From a bacterium (GTDB lineage: Bacteria; Myxococcota_A; UBA9160; UBA6930), in contig JAAELW010000228.1 of the NCBI GenBank assembly GCA_024226235.1, forward strand, positions 1-62,960: DNA of 62,960 nt. Direction: 5' to 3'. The translations under genes were made by a program, and so were the position numbers. Of the stretch, positions 1 to 62,142 are shown piece by piece. The notes under the pieces are model-generated. The model was not told the origin of the DNA. It did not search any database and was given only the letters and a program-made list of their open reading frames with translations. Within the stretch, counting starts at the first letter, position 1. The number at the start of each line of letters is the position of its first letter.

Positions 1-765
1 CACGTCAAGTACTACGCGGATGGCGCCATCTTCAGCCAGCTGATGCAGATGAGCGAGCCCTATCTCGATGGTCACGAGGGCGAGTGGATGATGCCGCCGG
101 ACCAGCAGCGGGCCGTACTCGAATCCTTCTGGACCCGAGGCTGGAGCATCCATATCCACGTGAACGGTGACGCCGGTCTCGACCTGGTCCTCGATCAGAT
201 CGAAGAGATGGAACGAATCCATCCCCGGGCCGCGGATCAGCGCGTGGTGCTGGAGCACTACGGATATGCGCGTGAGGACCAACACCATCGAGCGCACCGC
301 CTGGGAGTGGATGTCTCGAACAACTCCTACTACACCCACGAGCTGGCGCCCATCTATGCGGACAACGGGTTGGGAGTGGAGCGCGCGGAGGACATTTCAC
401 CGCTGGGCGGGCTGGCACGAGCGGGCGTTCCGATCTCGTTCCACTCCGACTACCCGATGGCGCCCGCCGAACCGCTGCGCCTGGCCTGGGTCGCGGTGAA
501 TCGCATCGGAAGTGATGGTCGCACCTGGGGAGAAGACCAGCGTCTCTCTCTCGATCTCGCTCTAAGGGCAATCACGATCGAAGGGGCGCGAAGCCTGGGG
601 CTGGAAGATGAAATCGGGAGCCTCGAAGTCGGAAAACGGGCGGACTTCACCATCTTGGATCGCGATCCCTACGACACGCCTCCTGATGAACTCGCCGACA
701 TCCCGATCTGGGGCACCGTTCTCGGCGGACGACCACACCCCATCACCACGCGCTCGATCGAGTAG
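1..765 (+). CDS. Amidohydrolase family 3 (YtcJ-like) metal-dependent hydrolase, 5' truncated by window edge
   Basis: Frame is open from base 1 (HVKYYADGAIF...). Motifs IHIHVNGD, VLEH, FHSDYP, TIEGA and IGSLEVGKRADFTILDRDP. Confidence 0.85.
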   Translation, partial: HVKYYADGAIFSQLMQMSEPYLDGHEGEWMMPPDQQRAVLESFWTRGWSIHIHVNGDAGLDLVLDQIEEMERIHPRAADQRVVLEHYGYAREDQHHRAHRLGVDVSNNSYYTHELAPIYADNGLGVERAEDISPLGGLARAGVPISFHSDYPMAPAEPLRLAWVAVNRIGSDGRTWGEDQRLSLDLALRAITIEGARSLGLEDEIGSLEVGKRADFTILDRDPYDTPPDELADIPIWGTVLGGRPHPITTRSIE

Positions 766-1741: not shown

Positions 1742-2527
1742 CTAGCCGATCGCGACTTCGCGCTTCCGGTCGATCCGCCAGCGGTGAAGGCCGCCCGCTT
1801 GATAGGCCACCACGAAGACGCGACGGCTGGTCTGGGTCCGGTTCGTCTGGGAGCCATGCACGAGATCACGATGGAAGTAGAGCACGCTGCCTGAGGGCAG
1901 CTCGGTTGCAACGGCCTCGCCATCGATCAGGTCGGTATCGGTATACAACGCCCCCAGCACGCCGCGATCTTCGAGACCTTTCAGGTTGCCGTGCTTGTGG
2001 CTACCAGGGATCACCCACAGACATCCGTTCTCCTTGGTCGAATCGTCCAGATAGGTGAGGGTGCTGACCAGGGATTCGAGGTCTTCGGCTCCGTTCTCCC
2101 AGTACAAGCCCTCCTGATGCCAGGGAAACGGTGCTCCACCGGGGCGCTTCACGTTGAGCTTGTCGCTGAAGACGCTGAGGGCGTCACACTGATTGATCGA
2201 CTGGACCGGTTGATAGAGGCGCGGATCGTCGAGCAGGACTTCCAGGCGTGCATCGAGGTGTCCGGTCGGCTCCATCGAGCGAACCGCCACGAGATCATCG
2301 CTCCATTCCCATTTGATCGTCGAGCCCAGCACGGTCTGGTACTTCTGGTTGTCGACCTGGTCGATCGGCCCGGCGTCACTTCGGCCGGCCGCTTCCACGA
2401 TCTGCGAGTGAACGTGCTCCGCGCCCGCCCGCATTCCTTCGAGTTCCTGATCGGTGAAGACCTTCTCCCTGATGAAGAAGCCGAGCTCATCGTATTGCTT
2501 CAATTCCGCGTCTGTCGCTCGATACAC
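1742..2527 (-). CDS. Phytanoyl-CoA dioxygenase (PhyH) family Fe(II)/2OG oxygenase
   Basis: PWHQE (HxD/E), ENGCLWVIPGSH and HGSQTNRT..SRR motifs. Confidence 0.85.
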   Translation of the reverse strand: MYRATDAELKQYDELGFFIREKVFTDQELEGMRAGAEHVHSQIVEAAGRSDAGPIDQVDNQKYQTVLGSTIKWEWSDDLVAVRSMEPTGHLDARLEVLLDDPRLYQPVQSINQCDALSVFSDKLNVKRPGGAPFPWHQEGLYWENGAEDLESLVSTLTYLDDSTKENGCLWVIPGSHKHGNLKGLEDRGVLGALYTDTDLIDGEAVATELPSGSVLYFHRDLVHGSQTNRTQTSRRVFVVAYQAGGLHRWRIDRKREVAIG

Positions 2528-2733
2528 GATCTTCGCCTCCGCTGGCGTTCTGGATTGGGGCTGCGCCGCACATTACTGAATTCTCCAGTGGAGCGAATCC
2601 AGAACCCGGCGCTACTGGGGCAAATTGACCCAGTACTGGTGCCAGACCCCTGGATCGTCCTCGCCAGGCAGTTGGATGCGATACCTTGCTTGCACCGAAT
2701 TGCGGCGGGGCGGGCCGAACGAGGAGGTCGATC

Positions 2734-3447
2734 ATGGCAGATCGGAACCGATTGCATCCCCTGGTGGCCAGACGTGCGATGCGCGCGCTTCGCCAGGATC
2801 CCGACAATACGGCGGCTGCGATTCAGGTCATCGGAGCACTCTCGGGAGATTCGGGCAGACGGGCCTTCAGACGCTTCCAGCGCTCCCCCCAGGGCGAGCG
2901 GATCCTGCGCGAGAAGCAGGACTTGTTCGACGTGCTGACGGATCACGAGCGGCTCCACGCAATGCCAGAAGGTTCGCTCGGCCGGACGATCGTCGATTGG
3001 TTCGAACGCGAAAACATCAGTACGGCCGGGCTGGCGCAGGCCAGCGCGGCCGCACGCGACGGTGCGGTTCGGGAGATTGGTGCGGACGAGGCGATCTATG
3101 GCTTGCGCATGCGCAACCTGCACGACGTGTTTCACGTGGTGGCCGGCTACGACCGCGATCTGCGAGGCGAGGCTGCGGTACTCGCGTTCACGGTCGCCCA
3201 GAGCTTCAACATGGGTGTCGCCTACCTGGTCTGGTCTGCGCTGCGTGCCTCGGGTTGGAACTCAGAGGGCGGCAGATTGATCCGCCAGGGGTTCCGCCGC
3301 GGCAAACGTGCGAAGCAATTGGTGGAGCAGGATTGGGAGGCCCTCTTCGAGCGCCCGATCGATGAGGTGCGTGAGGAGCTCGGCGTCGGAGCGCCGCCGA
3401 TCTACGAGCAGCTCCGTTCGGCAGGAGCCCCCGCGCTGAGCACATAG
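2734..3447 (+). CDS. Coq4 family protein
   Basis: LHDVFHVVAGY...GEAA (HDxxH...E) and MPEGSLG motifs; GAGGAGG RBS at 2721 before ATG 2734. Confidence 0.8.
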   Translation: MADRNRLHPLVARRAMRALRQDPDNTAAAIQVIGALSGDSGRRAFRRFQRSPQGERILREKQDLFDVLTDHERLHAMPEGSLGRTIVDWFERENISTAGLAQASAAARDGAVREIGADEAIYGLRMRNLHDVFHVVAGYDRDLRGEAAVLAFTVAQSFNMGVAYLVWSALRASGWNSEGGRLIRQGFRRGKRAKQLVEQDWEALFERPIDEVREELGVGAPPIYEQLRSAGAPALST

Positions 3448-3550
3448 CGCAGCCGCCCTCGAAGCGAGGCGGCTCCAGTCTTCCACCCATGCATTCCCGG
3501 GTATCCGCCCGGACCGGGCCCGACTCCGTCGCCGTTTCCGCCCGGCGAGG

Positions 3551-3610
3551 ATCTTCGCAGTGAGCCTGAAATCTTCGCTGTGAGCCTCAGATCTTTGCAC
3601 TGGGCCGCTC
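3551..3610. repeat. Three degenerate 20-bp tandem direct repeats upstream of the EPS operon
   Basis: ATCTTCGCAGTGAGCCTGAA / ATCTTCGCTGTGAGCCTCAG / ATCTTTGCACTGGGCCGCTC, read directly. Confidence 0.8.
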
Positions 3611-3668
3611 ATCCACACTGCCCGTCGGGACGATGGGGGAGCGTGGAATCTGCGCGGCCCTCTCGATC

Positions 3669-5225
3669 ATGAAACGTTGTGGAGTACCCATCCTAGACGA
3701 CTCCCTGGGAGGTCTGTCTCCGGAGCTCCCGACCACCGTCATCGGTCCGTCGGGAGCCGGGCGCACTGTGCTCACGCTCGAGCTGCTGCATGCCACGATC
3801 TCCCGCGGCGAGACCGCGGCGCTGATCACCGGAGAGCCTCCGGAGCTCCTTCTCCGTCAGGCGGCAAGCCTCGGATTGACCCTGGAACATGCGATTCAAA
3901 GCGACCTGCTGACGATCCTCGAGCTGGATGCACGTGCCGCAATGCTCGTACGCGTGCACGGCGTCGACGCATTGATCGAAGCCATCGTCGAGGCTGCAGG
4001 CACCCCTGGCACACTCGTCATCGAAGACATCGGCAAACTGACCCAGGAAATCCTCGATGAAGTGACTCTGCGAGGCGTCGTGCGCCGATTGCTCGAGGTC
4101 ACACGGGGTTCGGGCGGAACGACACTGGTCACATCCAGCACATCGCGACTTCGTGGCACATCCGCTCTCGAGCAGGTGCTTGGCGACATGTCGGGAGCGA
4201 TCATCCAGCTGGATCGGGACGACGACGGCGAGAGGACTCTCCTCGTCAATAAATGCCGAATGGGCCGGCCCTTGGCAGAGAACCTCCGGTTCGAGATCAC
4301 CACCGGAGGGCTTCGGCAGTTGGAGCTCCATCCGGCCGTCCGAGAGGCGATCGGGAATGAAGTGGGGGAAACAGCCGAACCGACTCCCGAGTCCTTCGAC
4401 GTCGAAACCCGCCCCCGTATCCTGATCGCCGAAGATGAGCACTTCGAGCGCGAGCGCATCCAGGACATTCTCGGCGACGAGTACGACATCCGCTTCGCCG
4501 AAGACGGATTCGAAGCCCTCTCGGCTCTTCTGGTCGAAACCCCAGACCTCCTGCTGCTCGATCTCGTGATGCCGAGAGTGACTGGGGAAGAAGTGTTGCG
4601 CTCGCTCCGGGCCTCCGGCTCGACCCTTCCTGTCCTCGTCACGTCGAGCCGAGTCGGACGGGCAGCAGACCGGGTCCGCATGCTCTTCCAGGGTGCAGCT
4701 GACGTGATGGCAAAGCCCGTGAATGCCGTCGAGCTCAGAAGCCGGGTCACGACCCTGCTTGCCGCCTCTGCGGGTGGAACTCCGAAGTTGCAGGAGAACG
4801 ATGTCGCCGGTCTCCTGGCGAGGGGCAAGTCTTCGCATTGCCTGGACGAGGATGCCTTCGCGTTGCTCGTGGAACGTGCGAGCGAGTTTGCACGTGCCTA
4901 CCAGATGACATCGGCGCTGATGGCAGTGGAAGGCGAGCCGCAGATCATCGATGCCCTCGTATCCGTCGCAGACGAAACACTCCGCGGAGACGACGCCATC
5001 CTCGCGCTCTCCGAGGGACGAGTGTTGATGCTGCTCGTGTTGACGCCACCGACCACCGCGCAGGTCACTACGCGCCGGCTCGGAGAAGCCTTGGGACGCG
5101 CCAGGATCTCCCGCAAGGCGTTGAAGATCGGGCTCCAACCAGTGAACGGCGAGCCCCTCGAGCCCTTCAAAACCTTCTTCGACAACCTCTCACCCTGGCT
5201 CTCCGTAGAAAAGGGAAGAAAGTGA
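3669..5225 (+). CDS. RecA/KaiC-like ATPase* - REC - degenerate GGDEF* protein (BcsE-like architecture)
   Basis: KaiC/RAD55-like start (GVPILDDSLGG), Walker A variant GPSGAGRT, LVIED, KCR and RFEITTGG. REC: ILIAEDE, LLLDLVMP, VTSS, AKP. C-terminal RGDD-x5-SEGRV. An alternative ATG lies at 3633. Confidence 0.75.
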   Translation: MKRCGVPILDDSLGGLSPELPTTVIGPSGAGRTVLTLELLHATISRGETAALITGEPPELLLRQAASLGLTLEHAIQSDLLTILELDARAAMLVRVHGVDALIEAIVEAAGTPGTLVIEDIGKLTQEILDEVTLRGVVRRLLEVTRGSGGTTLVTSSTSRLRGTSALEQVLGDMSGAIIQLDRDDDGERTLLVNKCRMGRPLAENLRFEITTGGLRQLELHPAVREAIGNEVGETAEPTPESFDVETRPRILIAEDEHFERERIQDILGDEYDIRFAEDGFEALSALLVETPDLLLLDLVMPRVTGEEVLRSLRASGSTLPVLVTSSRVGRAADRVRMLFQGAADVMAKPVNAVELRSRVTTLLAASAGGTPKLQENDVAGLLARGKSSHCLDEDAFALLVERASEFARAYQMTSALMAVEGEPQIIDALVSVADETLRGDDAILALSEGRVLMLLVLTPPTTAQVTTRRLGEALGRARISRKALKIGLQPVNGEPLEPFKTFFDNLSPWLSVEKGRK

Positions 5226-6631
5226 CGCTTCGCCCCATTGCACACGCGCTCCTTGTGATGCTCTTGTGGGCCGGAATGGGCATGGCGGAAGGGACTGCGG
5301 TCGAGGAACGGCTCACCCAGGCCAATCAGTGGCTCGCAGATCGCGAACGTTGGGACGACGCGATCGAAATCTACCGCGATGCACTACGCCAGGACCCGAC
5401 CCTGACGGATGCGAGCATCCGACTCGCTCGGGTGCTCGCCTGGCAGCTCCGCTACGACGAGGCCCTTGCCGTACTCGATACGCTGATCGGCGAAGCCGGA
5501 AACCCGGAATACCTGATCGAACGAGCAGAGATCTACTCCTGGGCGGGCCAGCTCGACGCAGCCGAGAGGGACTTCGACGCAGTCCTCATGCAGGACCCGA
5601 ACCACGCCCGCGCCTACCGGGGCCTTGCCCGCGTCTTCATGTGGTCTGAGCGAAAGAGCGAAGCTGATCGCGCATTTCGCCGGGCTCTCTCTCTCGAAGA
5701 GAACGAGGAAGCGAGACGCGATTGGGACCAGCTCCGATCGAACGACCGTCCCTCCCTGGAACCCAGCATAGAATTCGTGACGGATTCATACGACTTCGAT
5801 GCATTGCGAGTCGGTGCGATAGCCACCTTCTCTCCCGATTTCGAAACCACGCTTTCGATTCGGACAAACTGGTTGAAGATCGACCATCTCGCAGAGCCCG
5901 AGTTTCTCCGTGGCGATACGAGCGAGAAGGGAAGAGAGCTCGGCATCGATCTGGAGCGTGGTCTTTCCGAATTGTGGTCCGGCCGTCTGTCCCTCGCCGG
6001 CCGTTCCTGGCGCGACGCACCGGATCGACTCATCGGCGAGCTGGAATTCGACTATTCCGGGTGGTCGGACATGACATTCCAGATCGCCGCAGGCCACCGC
6101 GATCAATGGGAAGACGCCCACTCCCTGCCGGCGCTTCGGAACGCGATCCAGACTACATACGCACGTCTCGGTGTCTGGCGGCACCTCGGTGAGCGTTCGG
6201 AACTGTATGCAAACATCGAGGGTGGCCGCCTCACGGATGGGAACCGGCTCGTCGGCAGCTACATGGAGGTGGGCTTTGCACCCCTCGAGCAGACCGATGC
6301 GCAACTCGTCCTGTCCGGGAGTTTTGCCAGCTACCACCGCCACGAAGACATCTACTACAGCCCCGAACTCGATGGATCGCTCGGCCTCCTTGCACGCAAG
6401 GATCTGGCCCTCTCGCCGACTCTCGGCCTTCGGCTCGAAGCCGGTGCCGGAATGGGAAGTTCGAGGGAATTCGGTGCGTGGAGCAGCGGCTTGGCGTTGA
6501 GGGCCGCCGGAATCCTCGAATGGAAGTTCGACTCCTGGGCACTGCGCGCGGAAGGCAGATTCGACCAGTCACAACGTGCCGCCACCTACCGTACATCGAA
6601 GGTCGGGCTCGAGCTGAAACGGAGTTTCTGA
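5222..6631 (+). CDS. TPR + outer-membrane beta-barrel polysaccharide export protein (PgaA/BcsC-like)
   Basis: GTG overlaps the upstream TGA. Signal peptide, TPR-like repeats (LARVLAWQLRYDEAL, RAEIYSWAGQLDAAE, LARVFMWS), amphipathic strands, YYSP motif, and C-terminal VGLELKRSF beta-signal ending in Phe. Confidence 0.75.
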   Translation: MTLRPIAHALLVMLLWAGMGMAEGTAVEERLTQANQWLADRERWDDAIEIYRDALRQDPTLTDASIRLARVLAWQLRYDEALAVLDTLIGEAGNPEYLIERAEIYSWAGQLDAAERDFDAVLMQDPNHARAYRGLARVFMWSERKSEADRAFRRALSLEENEEARRDWDQLRSNDRPSLEPSIEFVTDSYDFDALRVGAIATFSPDFETTLSIRTNWLKIDHLAEPEFLRGDTSEKGRELGIDLERGLSELWSGRLSLAGRSWRDAPDRLIGELEFDYSGWSDMTFQIAAGHRDQWEDAHSLPALRNAIQTTYARLGVWRHLGERSELYANIEGGRLTDGNRLVGSYMEVGFAPLEQTDAQLVLSGSFASYHRHEDIYYSPELDGSLGLLARKDLALSPTLGLRLEAGAGMGSSREFGAWSSGLALRAAGILEWKFDSWALRAEGRFDQSQRAATYRTSKVGLELKRSF

Positions 6632-7941: not shown

Positions 7942-8136
7942 ATGGACCTCGTTCCCGTACTATCCACCGTCATCTTCGTGGCAACGATCGCGACGATGAT
8001 TCTCGCCGTCTTCTCCTACGCGGCGTTCAAGCTCCGTGAGAAGCGAAAGCCGAAGGGATCGGATGAAAAGCCCGTCTTCTTCCATCACTTCAAACTCGCG
8101 GGAGCAGACGAGAATGCCGACGCGGGCCCGGAGTGA
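7942..8136 (+). CDS. Small single-pass membrane protein (64 aa), probable synthase accessory subunit
   Basis: ATG directly follows the GT2 TAG, with a GGAGG RBS inside the GT2 3' end; about 25 hydrophobic residues, then KLREKRKPK. Confidence 0.7.
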   Translation: MDLVPVLSTVIFVATIATMILAVFSYAAFKLREKRKPKGSDEKPVFFHHFKLAGADENADAGPE

Positions 8137-34254: not shown

Positions 34255-34535
34255 GGACAAAAGATGGCAGAAACCATGCCATAACTCGACCCCGGATCCT
34301 GCGGGGGCCTTTCGCACGCTGGTCTGGCGGCCGTTGGATGATTCTCCCAATACGAACAGGAAGCCCGAACAGGAAGCCGGACCGATCCCGGATACCCATC
34401 TGCGCACGAGGTGCGTATCGGACACCCGCAACGCCTGAGCCAAGCATTCGAACGATCATCACATCCACGATTGTGATGACAGTCATGCTTGGACACGGCC
34501 GCTCTTCCGTCGCATCCGACTGGAGGTAGTCGCCG

Positions 34536-35276
34536 ATGATGAAGCGTACTCAGCGGGCCGTGCTCCTGTTGGATGTGGGACAGGGCTCATTTGCGATCCT
34601 TGCCGGGCGCATCAGTAGGCTGGGCTTCCGCGTATTGCGGGTAAAGACACCGGAGGAAGCCATCCCCGTGCTGGCGGATCCGCGCTTTGCCGTGCATGCG
34701 CTGATCGTGCCGCCGGACCTGCCGGTCCCGGACCTGAGGACGACGCTGGCTGCGTTGCGTCTCCAATCGACCCGGGAGGCCCTCGCCATCCTGGTGAGCC
34801 TTCCGCGCAGCACACCGAAGCCGGAGCGCGAGTGGCTTGCCCGCGCGGGCATCGATCTTCCCTTGTTCGACCCGATCAATGCCCACTCGCTTCGTTTTCA
34901 GCTGAACCGCGCGATTGCGGGCGCGATTCCGGCGCGTCGCGAGCGGAACAAACGACGCGCGCCGGCCAGCCACGAGGTGACACTGCACAACCGCCGGCGT
35001 CGGCGGCCGGCGAGGCTCTACACGTTCTCTTCTCGGGGAGCCTTCCTCTGCTGCGAAGCGACCTTTCTCCGCAAGAGCCGCTTCGATCTCGAGCTCGGCA
35101 TCGCCGGGCTTCCTCGTCGTATTCCCAGCGAGGTCGTGATGACCAACGTTGCGGGCAATCTCTCACACAACGCCCTGCCCCACGGCATGGCCGTCCACTT
35201 CGGCGGCCTCGAATCAGAGCAAGAGACTGCGCTGGAGTTGCTCGTAGACAAGGTGTTGAGGCGCCTCGAGCTCTAG
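34536..35276 (+). CDS. Degenerate REC-like + PilZ domain protein
   Basis: RERNKRR (RxxxR), TFSSRGAFL (degenerate D/NxSxxG) and GMAVHF; GGAGG RBS. Confidence 0.65.
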   Translation: MMKRTQRAVLLLDVGQGSFAILAGRISRLGFRVLRVKTPEEAIPVLADPRFAVHALIVPPDLPVPDLRTTLAALRLQSTREALAILVSLPRSTPKPEREWLARAGIDLPLFDPINAHSLRFQLNRAIAGAIPARRERNKRRAPASHEVTLHNRRRRRPARLYTFSSRGAFLCCEATFLRKSRFDLELGIAGLPRRIPSEVVMTNVAGNLSHNALPHGMAVHFGGLESEQETALELLVDKVLRRLEL

Positions 35277-60599: not shown

Positions 60600-60744
60600 G
60601 ATGGCCTCCAGGCCTGGAACGAGGGCCACAGACGCGAAGAGCTGCTGCTGGTCAAACTGCACGGGCCTGGCATCGGTCGAACCCTCGAGTCCCTGAAACA
60701 CCTGACAGGTCAAGCCAGCGAGGAGTTCGGACGATCGCGACAAG

Positions 60745-62142
60745 ATGACGCCCCGCAATATCCGGAAGCGACAAGCCGCCGTCCGGAAGCTCAAGGACAA
60801 TGCCAGCAAGGCCCTTCGCAAGGGCAAGCTGAAGGATGCCCGGGATGCCTACGAAGAACTCGAGAGGATTGATCCTGAGGAGGGTCAGTGGCCCCAGCGC
60901 CTGGCTGATGCGCTGCGCCGCCTGAACGACCAGGAGGGCTGTGTGCAGGCTTTGGACCGTGCGGCCGACCGCTGGGCCGATGGTGGCTTCCTGTTGAAAG
61001 CGATCGCCGCCTGCAAGATGGTGCTCGATCTGGAGCCGGAACACACGCGCATCCAGGCGCGACTGGCGGAGCTGTATGCGAGCCGGGGGCACAGGCCGAA
61101 GGGCGCTGACGCACCGGAGGCTCTGTCCACAGACCTCGAACCGGGTCGGCCGCTCGAGGAGATCGTACTCACGGAAGTCGTTCCGACCCGCGAGCCGCTC
61201 GAACTCGAACTCGAAACCGACAGCAGCGCGGTCGAAGTCCTGCTGACCCCCGACGAGCTGGGTCTTCCGCCCGAACTCGAACTCAATCCGGCCGTCGAAG
61301 CCCGTTCCGAGATTCGCCGGACCTTGCCCCGCGTTCCGCTCTTCTCGTCCTTGAACGCGGGAAGTCTGCGGCTCCTGATCGACGGCACTGAACGGACGGA
61401 GCTCCGTGAAGGCGAGACGCTCTTCGAAGAAGGTGACCTGGGGGATGCGCTCTACATCGTGGCCGAGGGCGCGGTGGTACCCATCGCACGCGGCGAAAAC
61501 GGACAGCCGAAGCGAATGGCAGTGCTCGAAGAGGGTGCCTTCTTCGGCGAAACTGCTCTGCTTGCAGACCAACCGCGCAACGCGAGCATCGAGGCACTCG
61601 TCGACACCCAGCTGCTGGCCATCGACCGCCGCATCCTGAATGAGCTGCTCGAGCGCGATCCAGAGGTGCTCTCCACGTTACTCGGTTTCTTTCGCGACCG
61701 GCTGATGGAGCGACTGGCTCTGACGAGCGCGTTCCTCGGGCCGCTCGACACAGAGGCTCGTCGGGAGCTGCTCGCGAGCTTCCGCTTCCTCGAGGTCGAA
61801 GAGGGCGGAAGGTTGATTGCCCAGGGTCGGCCGGCACCGGCCCTCTTCGTGATGCTGGCGGGTGAGATCGAGACCGTAAAGCAGCGGGAGGATGCGAGCG
61901 GGCCCACGACACTCGCGACCCTCCAGGCCGGCCACGTGTTCGGCGAGATGTCGATCCTCGAAGACGGGCCAGCAATTGCCTCCTGCATCGCTTCACGGAA
62001 GTGCTGGGTCCTCGCCCTGGCTCGCTGTCACGTCACCGAGCGGATGGCCCGACATCCGGAGCTGCGCGACGCCGCGATCGCACTGGCCAAGCAGCGGCGG
62101 GCGGAGAACCAGACGTTGGCGAGTCGGCTCGAACTCGTCTGA
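60745..62142 (+). CDS. TPR-like + two cyclic-nucleotide-binding domains
   Basis: N-terminal helical repeats (LKAIAACKMVLDLEP); FFGETALL..PRNAS and VFGEMSIL..PAIAS. Confidence 0.85.
   Translation: MTPRNIRKRQAAVRKLKDNASKALRKGKLKDARDAYEELERIDPEEGQWPQRLADALRRLNDQEGCVQALDRAADRWADGGFLLKAIAACKMVLDLEPEHTRIQARLAELYASRGHRPKGADAPEALSTDLEPGRPLEEIVLTEVVPTREPLELELETDSSAVEVLLTPDELGLPPELELNPAVEARSEIRRTLPRVPLFSSLNAGSLRLLIDGTERTELREGETLFEEGDLGDALYIVAEGAVVPIARGENGQPKRMAVLEEGAFFGETALLADQPRNASIEALVDTQLLAIDRRILNELLERDPEVLSTLLGFFRDRLMERLALTSAFLGPLDTEARRELLASFRFLEVEEGGRLIAQGRPAPALFVMLAGEIETVKQREDASGPTTLATLQAGHVFGEMSILEDGPAIASCIASRKCWVLALARCHVTERMARHPELRDAAIALAKQRRAENQTLASRLELV

Follow-up and report, generated by a model that had tools for sequence, protein, structure and literature searches.

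The window analysed here is a stretch of 62,960 nucleotides from an uncultured Myxococcota-like bacterium (GenBank assembly GCA_024226235.1, contig JAAELW010000228.1, positions 1 to 62,960). Near its start lies a polysaccharide operon whose leading gene, the target of this study, encodes a soluble protein in which a KaiC-type P-loop domain, a receiver (REC) and a degenerate GGDEF domain follow one another (Table 1). Here, we report that this protein combines the domain order of the cellulose regulator BcsE with predicted binding motifs for cyclic di-GMP (c-di-GMP) in both its receiver and its C-terminal domain. On balance, and by a modest degree, we think it probable that the target is a cytoplasmic c-di-GMP receptor that controls the poly-N-acetylglucosamine (PNAG)-like synthase of its own operon post-translationally, the binding of the ligand being predicted.

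The leading gene is a real coding gene, with the GC content at third codon positions following the pattern typical of a coding frame. An alternative in-frame ATG is present at 3633; translation probably starts at the ATG at 3669, because the homologues open with the same MK(R/P)xGV. No true membrane segment was found in the protein, and a membrane protein was rejected as an interpretation, the sole hydrophobic window (residues 283-301) being the receiver core. A sequence-only reading that preceded this analysis had located GPSGAGRT, the receiver aspartate and RGDD in the gene, and the translation places all three exactly where they had been put. In what follows, counts out of 24 refer to the family alignment of close relatives. 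Counts out of 58 refer to the target and 57 representatives of 50%-identity clusters, taken as single-stretch, near-full-length matches from a profile search of cluster representatives. Loci of relatives are cited by L-numbers.

Table 1. Positions of the leading gene, its domains and motifs, the surrounding genes and related features (window positions unless a locus or contig is named)
Feature	Position	Strand	Basis or remark
Target gene, 518-aa soluble KaiC-like/REC/degenerate-GGDEF protein	3669..5225	+	operon leader; translation, Pfam, family alignment, model
KaiC/RecA-type P-loop domain, residues 1-219	3669..4325	+	PF06745 E 3.4e-19; PDB KaiC E 5.5e-15; top Foldseek matches of full model all KaiC
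Walker A GPSGAGRT, Arg32 for canonical Lys	3744..3767	+	translation; aligned to GTGKT of KaiC (PDB sequence search)
Glu56, position of KaiC catalytic Glu pair	3834..3836	+	alignment to KaiC; invariant 24/24
Receiver (REC), residues 249-367	4413..4769	+	PF00072 67.9 bits, cut-off 30.2
Acidic pocket AED, residues 254-256 (start of AEDE)	4428-4436	+	translation
Phospho-acceptor Asp298	4560-4562	+	invariant 24/24
Ser326	4644-4646	+	invariant 24/24
Lys349-Pro350	4713-4718	+	K349 invariant 24/24
R331-A-A-D334-R335, candidate second I-site, start of receiver helix 4	4659..4673	+	position of BcsE R306ATD
Degenerate GGDEF core, residues 390-505 (predicted)	4836..5183	+	AF2 model; Foldseek; VIA-align
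Primary I-site R439-G-D-D442 (RGDD)	4983..4994	+	translation; aligned to RxxD of DgcR (6zxm) and PelD
SEGRV in beta-hairpin at GG(D/E)EF position, active site dead	5010..5024	+	translation; model
Arg470, third I-site residue	5076..5078	+	aligned to Arg of PelD and of DgcR
Tandem repeat, 2.5 copies of 20-bp unit	3551..3599	.	about 70 bp before target start codon; Tandem Repeats Finder: period 20, 82% matches, score 70
PgaA-like outer-membrane component: signal peptide, TPR repeats, C-terminal part ending in Phe	5222..6631	+	weak matches to PgaA, BcsC, PEP-CTERM TPR proteins
PgaC-like processive family-2 glycosyltransferase, 435 aa	6634..7941	+	GTG start 2 nt past preceding stop
64-aa single-pass membrane protein	7942..8136	+	ATG directly after synthase stop codon
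Homologues of the small membrane protein	L001:3089-3325, L003:12414-12629, L010:12488-12736, L038:7349-7576	- (L038)	position after synthase
Second PNAG-like cluster	C371 (L038:5540-11945) and C101 (L039:1-3485)	-	same genome

A degenerate GGDEF domain with a conserved I-site

Searched with the full-length model, Foldseek returned only KaiC chains (E about 1e-16), and the C-terminus was therefore folded and searched separately. Its 147 residues, modelled by AlphaFold2 (AF2) together with 14 relatives, gave a predicted local distance difference test score (pLDDT) of 86.5 and a predicted template modelling score (pTM) of 0.82. The model has the topology alpha-beta-alpha-beta-beta-alpha-beta, in which RGDD stands just before a hairpin (residues 72-85 of the domain model) and SEGRV lies at its turn. 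Every match that Foldseek listed for this model is of the GGDEF type, 19 of them at E <= 0.001 (best E 8e-5). When the model was compared by VIA-align with 48,161 PDB representatives, places 1 to 37 were all taken by GGDEF domains or GGDEF-containing proteins (Z 7.6-12.6), and the first unrelated chain falls to Z 6.9. The best match was 6khu (Z 12.6), followed by PelD (4dmz, Z 11.4, 19% identity), and the BcsE structures 9fnn, 6ybb and 6ybu scored 9.0-9.4. A GGDEF fold of the C-terminus, which had been set beforehand as a test of the sequence-only reading, is thus what the models predict.

The motifs within this fold are arranged as in an inhibitory site (I-site) next to a dead active site, as had been proposed. 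RGDD is separated from SEGRV by the five residues AILAL, and GG(D/E)EF is present in 0/58 sequences. The distance from R439 to R470 is 31 residues and matches that from R359 to R390, both of them I-site residues of PleD (PMC7288161). The conservation of RxxD among homologues, on which the earlier reading depended, is nearly complete: D442 is kept in all 58 sequences, R439 in 57 and R470 in 54, with the full triad in 53. By comparison the arginine of the P-loop occurs in 38 sequences and the receiver aspartate D298 in 41, so that no part of the protein is more constrained than the putative c-di-GMP pocket. Invariant throughout the 24-sequence alignment are R32, E56, D298, S326, K349, R439, D442 and R470.

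At the level of sequence profiles the signals for a GGDEF identity are weak, yet in register. PelD_GGDEF (PF16963) matches 10 of 14 family C-termini at E <= 1, with a best E of 5.6e-6. When the family profile was aligned to DgcR (6zxm, E 0.5), RxxD fell on RKSD and the residues at the SEGRV position on GGEEF; with PelD (E 0.8), RxxD fell on RGLD and the arginine of 'ieRl' on 'LQRL'. An active diguanylate cyclase was considered and rejected, since GG(D/E)EF is absent, SEGRV stands in its place and PF00990 has no match in the protein. The genome as a whole has 19 PF00990 matches, none of them at the target locus.

The receiver and a second RxxD motif

The receiver is recognised by its Pfam profile and retains the acidic pocket, the aspartate, the serine and the lysine of the KP pair, in agreement with the sequence-only reading; from these residues it is predicted to be phosphorylatable. 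Across the wider set the state of the receiver varies with that of the P-loop: among sequences with arginine in Walker A, 34 have the aspartate intact and 4 do not, against 6 and 11 among those with lysine. These counts are not independent events, because the Arg-type and Lys-type proteins form two clades.

The face made up of helix 4 and strand 5 is the part of a CheY-type receiver that moves on phosphorylation. In the full-length model of the target, helix 4 comprises residues 332-340, and the candidate second I-site lies at its start. R331 is found in 47/58 sequences, D334 in 48/58 (with glutamate in a further 8) and R335 in 56/58. R331 stands 11 residues ahead of a conserved Gly-Ala that precedes strand 5, exactly as in BcsE, and the distance between the RxxD of the receiver and that of the GGDEF-like domain is 108 residues in the target and 109 in BcsE. 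The searches also yielded 101 unrelated receiver proteins with 121 comparable 'GA...KP' sites, of which just one had R..D at the equivalent place. BcsE holds a c-di-GMP dimer between R415TGD on its degenerate GGDEF domain (GGDEF*) and R306ATD on its degenerate receiver (PMC7840130), and both motifs are present in the Escherichia coli K-12 sequence. We consider R331AAD the strongest single argument for a BcsE-like working of the target, as predicted from its motifs. This second RxxD, together with the PgaA/PgaC-like operon and a paralogue of opposite decay described below, goes beyond what the earlier reading had seen.

The KaiC-type domain

The N-terminal domain matches PF06745 (KaiC/ATPase) with 69.6 bits against a cut-off of 26.6; in NCBIfam only receiver and KaiC models were hit by the target protein, far under their cut-offs. 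The exchange of lysine for arginine in Walker A, noted from the sequence at the outset, is real, and arginine occupies the position in 24/24 close relatives. Of the 58 sequences, 38 have Arg at this position and 17 have Lys, with a gap in the remaining 3. The position of Glu56 holds Glu in 45 and Asp in 7, the Walker B acid is kept in 56/58 and R197 in 55/58, and the K195-x-R197 motif is present in the target. By profile and fold the domain belongs to the KaiC/RecA-type ATPases, with the Walker A lysine that hydrolysis requires replaced by Arg32. A clock-type KaiC was rejected as an identification: the domain is single, Walker A carries arginine and there is no kaiB. In RecA, the K72R exchange prevents hydrolysis, yet the protein still forms filaments and pairs DNA with ATP (PMC3973344). 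Since Arg32 is the same change, nucleotide-dependent assembly without turnover would be expected. The KaiC-type domain, in which all nucleotide-site residues except the Walker lysine are kept, would thus probably bind ATP without turnover and act as an oligomerising scaffold.

Alternatively, the protein would be a phosphorylation-driven scaffold or a slow ATPase for the assembly of a secretion machine, with its GGDEF-like domain serving as a protein-binding or dimerising module that senses no c-di-GMP. The intact receiver would fit, as would the selection evident on the nucleotide site at the Walker B acid and R197, and the GGDEF* domain of BcsE also binds a protein partner, BcsQ (PMC7439463). 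We regard this as unlikely, since the three I-site residues are the best conserved of the whole protein and are accompanied by a second RxxD, and selection for docking alone would not be expected to keep a triad at I-site spacing.

The polysaccharide operon

Following the target is a gene for a tetratricopeptide repeat (TPR)/porin protein, whose GTG start codon overlaps the TGA stop codon of the target as GTGA. TPR/porin homologues come after the target homologue in 6/11 loci, and L001 and L002 have no TPR gene. The synthase encoded by the third gene matches the PgaC_IcaA model TIGR03937 (E 1.1e-60, 205.7 bits, under the equivalog cut-off of 422 bits). Of its 5 hydrophobic segments two are N-terminal and three C-terminal; it has a QRYRW motif, and hyaluronan and cellulose synthases are among its PDB relatives. 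Across 11 sequences the enzyme shows 58-71% identity. It adjoins the target homologue in 9/11 loci, where the identity is 65-71%, and in the remaining two (L005 and L007) the contig ends first. At L009 the target homologue is at the far end of a same-strand cluster.

This arrangement bears on the possibility that the target regulates gene expression, or a process unrelated to the adjoining synthase, and that the adjacency is merely historical. The N-terminal domain of BcsE binds Nus factors (PMC7439463), and some of the more distant, Lys-type relatives adjoin glycolate-oxidase-like genes, both of which speak for it. No DNA-binding domain was found by Pfam, the target overlaps the next gene by GTGA and the synthase is kept in all 9 informative Arg-type loci, so that we hold this explanation to be highly improbable and continue to regard the synthase as the object of control.

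Directly after the PgaC-like synthase, a small membrane open reading frame (ORF) of 64-82 residues was found in 11/11 clusters examined. Its product follows the pattern MDxxPYLS...SYAAFKLRDKRRPK...PVFFxRY, with PVFF-x-RY as a conserved tail motif. No Pfam or NCBIfam family was found for the 64-residue protein of the window, the matches being only noise; it could be an analogue of PgaD or BcsF. In L003 and L010 the operons go on with a gene of about 450 codons and a polysaccharide deacetylase, and the corresponding proteins of L009 and L011 are without a Pfam match and 45% identical to the same genomic deacetylase. The gene that separates the small membrane protein from the deacetylase is itself conserved, with a product of about 380-465 residues (L003:12626-13969, L010:12733-14130, L011:12512-13897 and L009:5400-6548); it has no Pfam or NCBIfam match, and tblastn gave no match above 60 bits in the genome of the window. 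As PgaB-like deacetylases occur in the related operons, the polymer is probably a partly deacetylated polysaccharide of the N-acetylglucosamine (GlcNAc) type, that is, PNAG-like. A complex prediction of the PgaC-like synthase with the full target gave no answer (score 0.00) and counts neither for nor against binding.

The tandem repeat ahead of the target has the unit consensus ATCTTCGCAGTGAGCCTCAA and sits in a 220-bp gap on the 5' side of the gene, where it is possibly the operator for a regulator that binds direct repeats. Between 3300 and 8300 a simple scan found no sigma-70-like promoter sites; the two terminator-like sites that it gave, both on the minus strand, do not exceed the number in shuffled sequences. 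Among public runs, no RNA runs covering the stretch are listed, and four DNA runs of one study cover all or part of it.

The family, a paralogue and the genome

A search of 5.8 billion proteins recovered 11 near-full-length homologues (35-76% identity) and one 340-residue fragment identical to the window. Homologues with a name are called 'response regulator', among them the one with 76% identity, which is the label expected of automated annotation by the sequence-only reading; the public records are otherwise 'hypothetical protein'. At E <= 1e-30 the profile search recovered 2045 proteins from 1.84 billion cluster representatives, and among the matches listed below about 240 bits most are multi-receiver kinases. 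Scanning of species-representative genomes identified full-length relatives at 11 loci, and at two of these the target gene is duplicated in tandem, both copies preceding the TPR gene (L007:259-1911 and 2067-3452; L008:773-2455 and 2600-4138). In the second copy of L007 the P-loop has decayed to SAPGADRT, and a deletion has removed sequence where the ATPase domain ends. An Atlas look-up pointed to KaiC and REC clusters in Acidobacteriota and Gemmatimonadota, which is a lead only.

Lys-type relatives have the same cluster in 3/10 loci and partly in a fourth, which is cut short; one locus is too short to judge. Two Lys-type relatives, recognised by KaiC and a weak receiver match, stand directly after glycolate-oxidase-like genes for FAD-oxidase, FAD-binding and CCG/Fe-S proteins (L125:2708-9004 and L128:2775-9034).

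The genome (5.07 Mb in 564 contigs, 90% complete) also carries a second PNAG-like cluster on two further contigs, C371 and C101. C371 encodes a TPR/porin protein, a synthase sharing 58% identity with the first one, a small membrane protein and a 602-residue deacetylase; on C101 a PgaB-like deacetylase precedes the leader gene. This leader, a paralogue of the target, is split over the contig break, the end of C371 and the start of C101 sharing 97 identical bases. Its Walker A is GGSGSGKS, with the lysine kept. In its receiver the acceptor position is glycine (PDLIVMGARMP) and the RxxD is lost, and its C-terminus retains RAED and the downstream arginine, followed by an extra tail of about 100 residues. 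The pattern of decay is the opposite of that in the target, the Walker lysine being kept and the receiver aspartate lost.

The two clusters are probably also close together in the genome. Positions 1-765 (+) of the window encode an Amidohydro_3 protein from profile position 233 to 470, its C-terminal part; the N-terminal part (1-148) is found at the end of C101 (L039:3594-4259, +). No sequence overlap was found between the start of the window and the end of C101, and a short gap probably separates the two as neighbouring contigs. The clusters would then probably be arranged back to back at a distance of about 8 kb, with the join inferred.

With 19 GGDEF and 23 PilZ matches in the genome, c-di-GMP signalling exists in this bacterium. 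This abundance counts against a different ligand in the pocket (GTP, pGpG or another cyclic dinucleotide, or ATP at the P-loop only) as the signal that the target reports. The fold alone does not fix the identity of a ligand, and the strict conservation of arginine for lysine in the P-loop of the close family suggests that there is a real one; but RxxD with an arginine at PleD spacing is the signature of a c-di-GMP I-site (PMC7288161), and another nucleotide therefore appears very unlikely to us. The reading of the pocket as a c-di-GMP site is retained in the comparisons below.

Elsewhere in the window, an ORF at 34530-35276 encodes a 248-residue protein with a weak PilZ match at 34944-35246 (+; E 1.1e-4, 24.6 bits). 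It has no Pfam match at E <= 1e-5 and may be a divergent c-di-GMP receptor. At 60706-62142 (+) a 478-residue protein is encoded that carries a pair of cyclic-nucleotide-binding domains (PF00027, E 2.6e-37).

Comparison with known regulators

The closest counterpart of the target is BcsE, the 'GIL'-domain protein of type II cellulose secretion in E. coli and Salmonella, in which a RecA/KaiC-like domain, a receiver and a GGDEF-like domain occur in the same order (PMC7439463, PMC7840130). The sequence-only reading had described this architecture as it is published. Both proteins have an RxxD on the GGDEF-like domain and a second on the receiver at matching spacings, with contact to the ligand predicted for the target; their GGDEF-like folds match at Z 9.0-9.4; both lead their operon; and both operons encode a membrane protein of about 63 residues. 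BcsF is the short membrane partner that recruits BcsE (PMC7439463). Besides BcsQ on its GGDEF* domain and the Nus factors on its N-terminal domain (PMC7439463), the partners of BcsE comprise BcsA, BcsB and BcsR, whereas those of the target would be a PgaC-like synthase without a PilZ domain and a PgaA-like porin. The gene for BcsE lies in a bcs cluster with BcsF; the target has PgaA-like and PgaC-like neighbours, and the 64-residue membrane protein has no similarity to BcsF. The hosts differ as well, an enterobacterium in one case and an uncultured Myxococcota-like lineage in the other. The latter follows from RecQ relatives, which come from MAGs of uncultured Myxococcota or 'Deltaproteobacteria' and reach at best 75% identity. 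Walker A of BcsE is severely diverged and its receiver incompetent for phosphorylation (PMC7439463), whereas in the target the P-loop is intact but for the exchange of lysine for arginine and the receiver residues are all kept. By analogy the target would probably be a less decayed relative of BcsE in a different secretion system. The earlier proposal of a less degenerate BcsE-like receptor is in this respect supported by architecture, predicted fold and motif geometry. The term 'BcsE-like' rests on these three because no sequence method links the target to BcsE.

PelD of the Pseudomonas aeruginosa Pel system (4DMZ, 4DN0, 4EUV) provides the closest sequence signal for the target C-terminus, through PF16963 in 10/14 relatives, as well as the second-best fold match. 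RxxD and the downstream arginine align, the target family likewise has no GG(D/E)EF, and PelD regulates a synthase-dependent polysaccharide, as the target would by analogy. PelD, which we take from PDB titles to be membrane-anchored with a GAF domain, has neither ATPase nor receiver, whereas the target is soluble, has no GAF match and scores under the PF16963 cut-off. With response-regulator cyclases of the PleD/WspR type the target shares a phosphorylatable receiver before a GGDEF fold and the RxxD and arginine at the same 31-residue spacing. These are active cyclases with GG(D/E)EF; the target family is without the motif and without a PF00990 match, and has a KaiC-type domain in addition. 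As in the PgaCD system of E. coli, there is a PgaC-like synthase with a PgaA-like TPR/porin, and PgaB-like deacetylases in related loci. In E. coli, PgaC and PgaD are themselves the direct sensors of c-di-GMP. The target locus has no PgaD match and instead encodes the separate three-domain protein and the 64-residue membrane protein. Taken together, profiles and models support a predicted working like that of BcsE and PelD for a protein that belongs to neither Pfam family. Full-text searches of the literature turned up no account of a KaiC-REC-GGDEF* protein that regulates a PgaC-type system.

Control of the synthase and its alternatives

If the target is a receptor, an intercalated c-di-GMP dimer would be held between the RxxD/Arg470 site of the GGDEF domain and the RxxD of the receiver, as in BcsE, and its binding would activate or assemble the synthase complex. 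Phosphorylation of Asp298 by some kinase may alter the binding of c-di-GMP or the geometry between receiver and GGDEF domain, making the protein a gate with two inputs. A change in ligand binding should follow from phosphorylation because the receiver RxxD is on helix 4, beside the switch residue Ser326. The 64-residue membrane protein may bring the scaffold to the membrane, as BcsF does for BcsE; as it has no sequence similarity to BcsF, this idea is based on size, topology and operon position.

Several observations weigh against such a receptor. The whole genome has no match to the Pfam family of BcsE (PF10995) at E <= 0.001, a search in which the E. coli control was found, and the target has none at E <= 1; the family compared with the single E. 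coli BcsE sequence gave an hhalign probability of 0.2. For the C-terminus, Pfam gave only sub-threshold matches to PelD_GGDEF (E 0.05; 16.5 bits against a cut-off of 27) and GGDEF_2 (E 0.2), and the E-values of PDB profiles are weak (0.5-0.9). The alignments behind the AF2 models are shallow, with 14 and 24 rows. With a mean pLDDT of 84 and a pTM of 0.46, the full-length model gives confidence in the single domains but not in how they are placed, so that the nearness of the two RxxD motifs is a supposition. The family of the 64-residue membrane protein has no significant similarity to E. coli BcsF (hhalign probability 0.6). No conserved histidine kinase was found beside the target gene, a GAF histidine kinase being near only in L002. 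Finally, 5/10 loci of the more distant Lys-type relatives have no polysaccharide genes within the flanks examined.

The same structural evidence could also describe a brake or local sink, by which the synthase is held off, or the messenger sequestered, until the receiver is phosphorylated. The I-site is inhibitory in active cyclases (PMC7288161), and nothing in the sequence decides the sign of the effect. The degenerate-GGDEF receptors PelD and BcsE promote production (PMC7439463, PMC7288161), and a negative role for the target seems quite unlikely to us.

All these features could be joined in a more far-reaching, tentative picture, which we hold to be doubtful: the family would be a living intermediate towards BcsE, a coincidence detector with an ATP-locked KaiC ring tethered at a PgaC-type synthase. 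Phosphorylation of Asp298 would move helix 4 and with it the second RxxD, and the c-di-GMP dimer would be clamped only when both signals are present. The natural K-to-R KaiC ring, tethered by the 64-residue membrane protein, would hold the sensor at the synthase. If this were true, BcsE-style control would be ancient and general to synthase-dependent polysaccharides rather than a speciality of enterobacterial cellulose, and the paralogues of opposite decay would show inputs being lost one by one.

For several secreted polysaccharides, degenerate-GGDEF receptors such as PelD and BcsE are the known route of activation by c-di-GMP. BcsE has so far been treated as an enterobacterial add-on to cellulose secretion, with decayed domains of unclear origin. 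In this family the BcsE architecture with both I-site motifs is found in uncultured Myxococcota-like bacteria, beside a PNAG-type synthase that has no PilZ domain. The target offers a testable model for the merging of phosphorelay and c-di-GMP signals on one protein and, as its P-loop predicts, a natural 'hydrolysis-dead' KaiC module. It also offers a route to the past roles of the N-terminal and receiver domains of BcsE.

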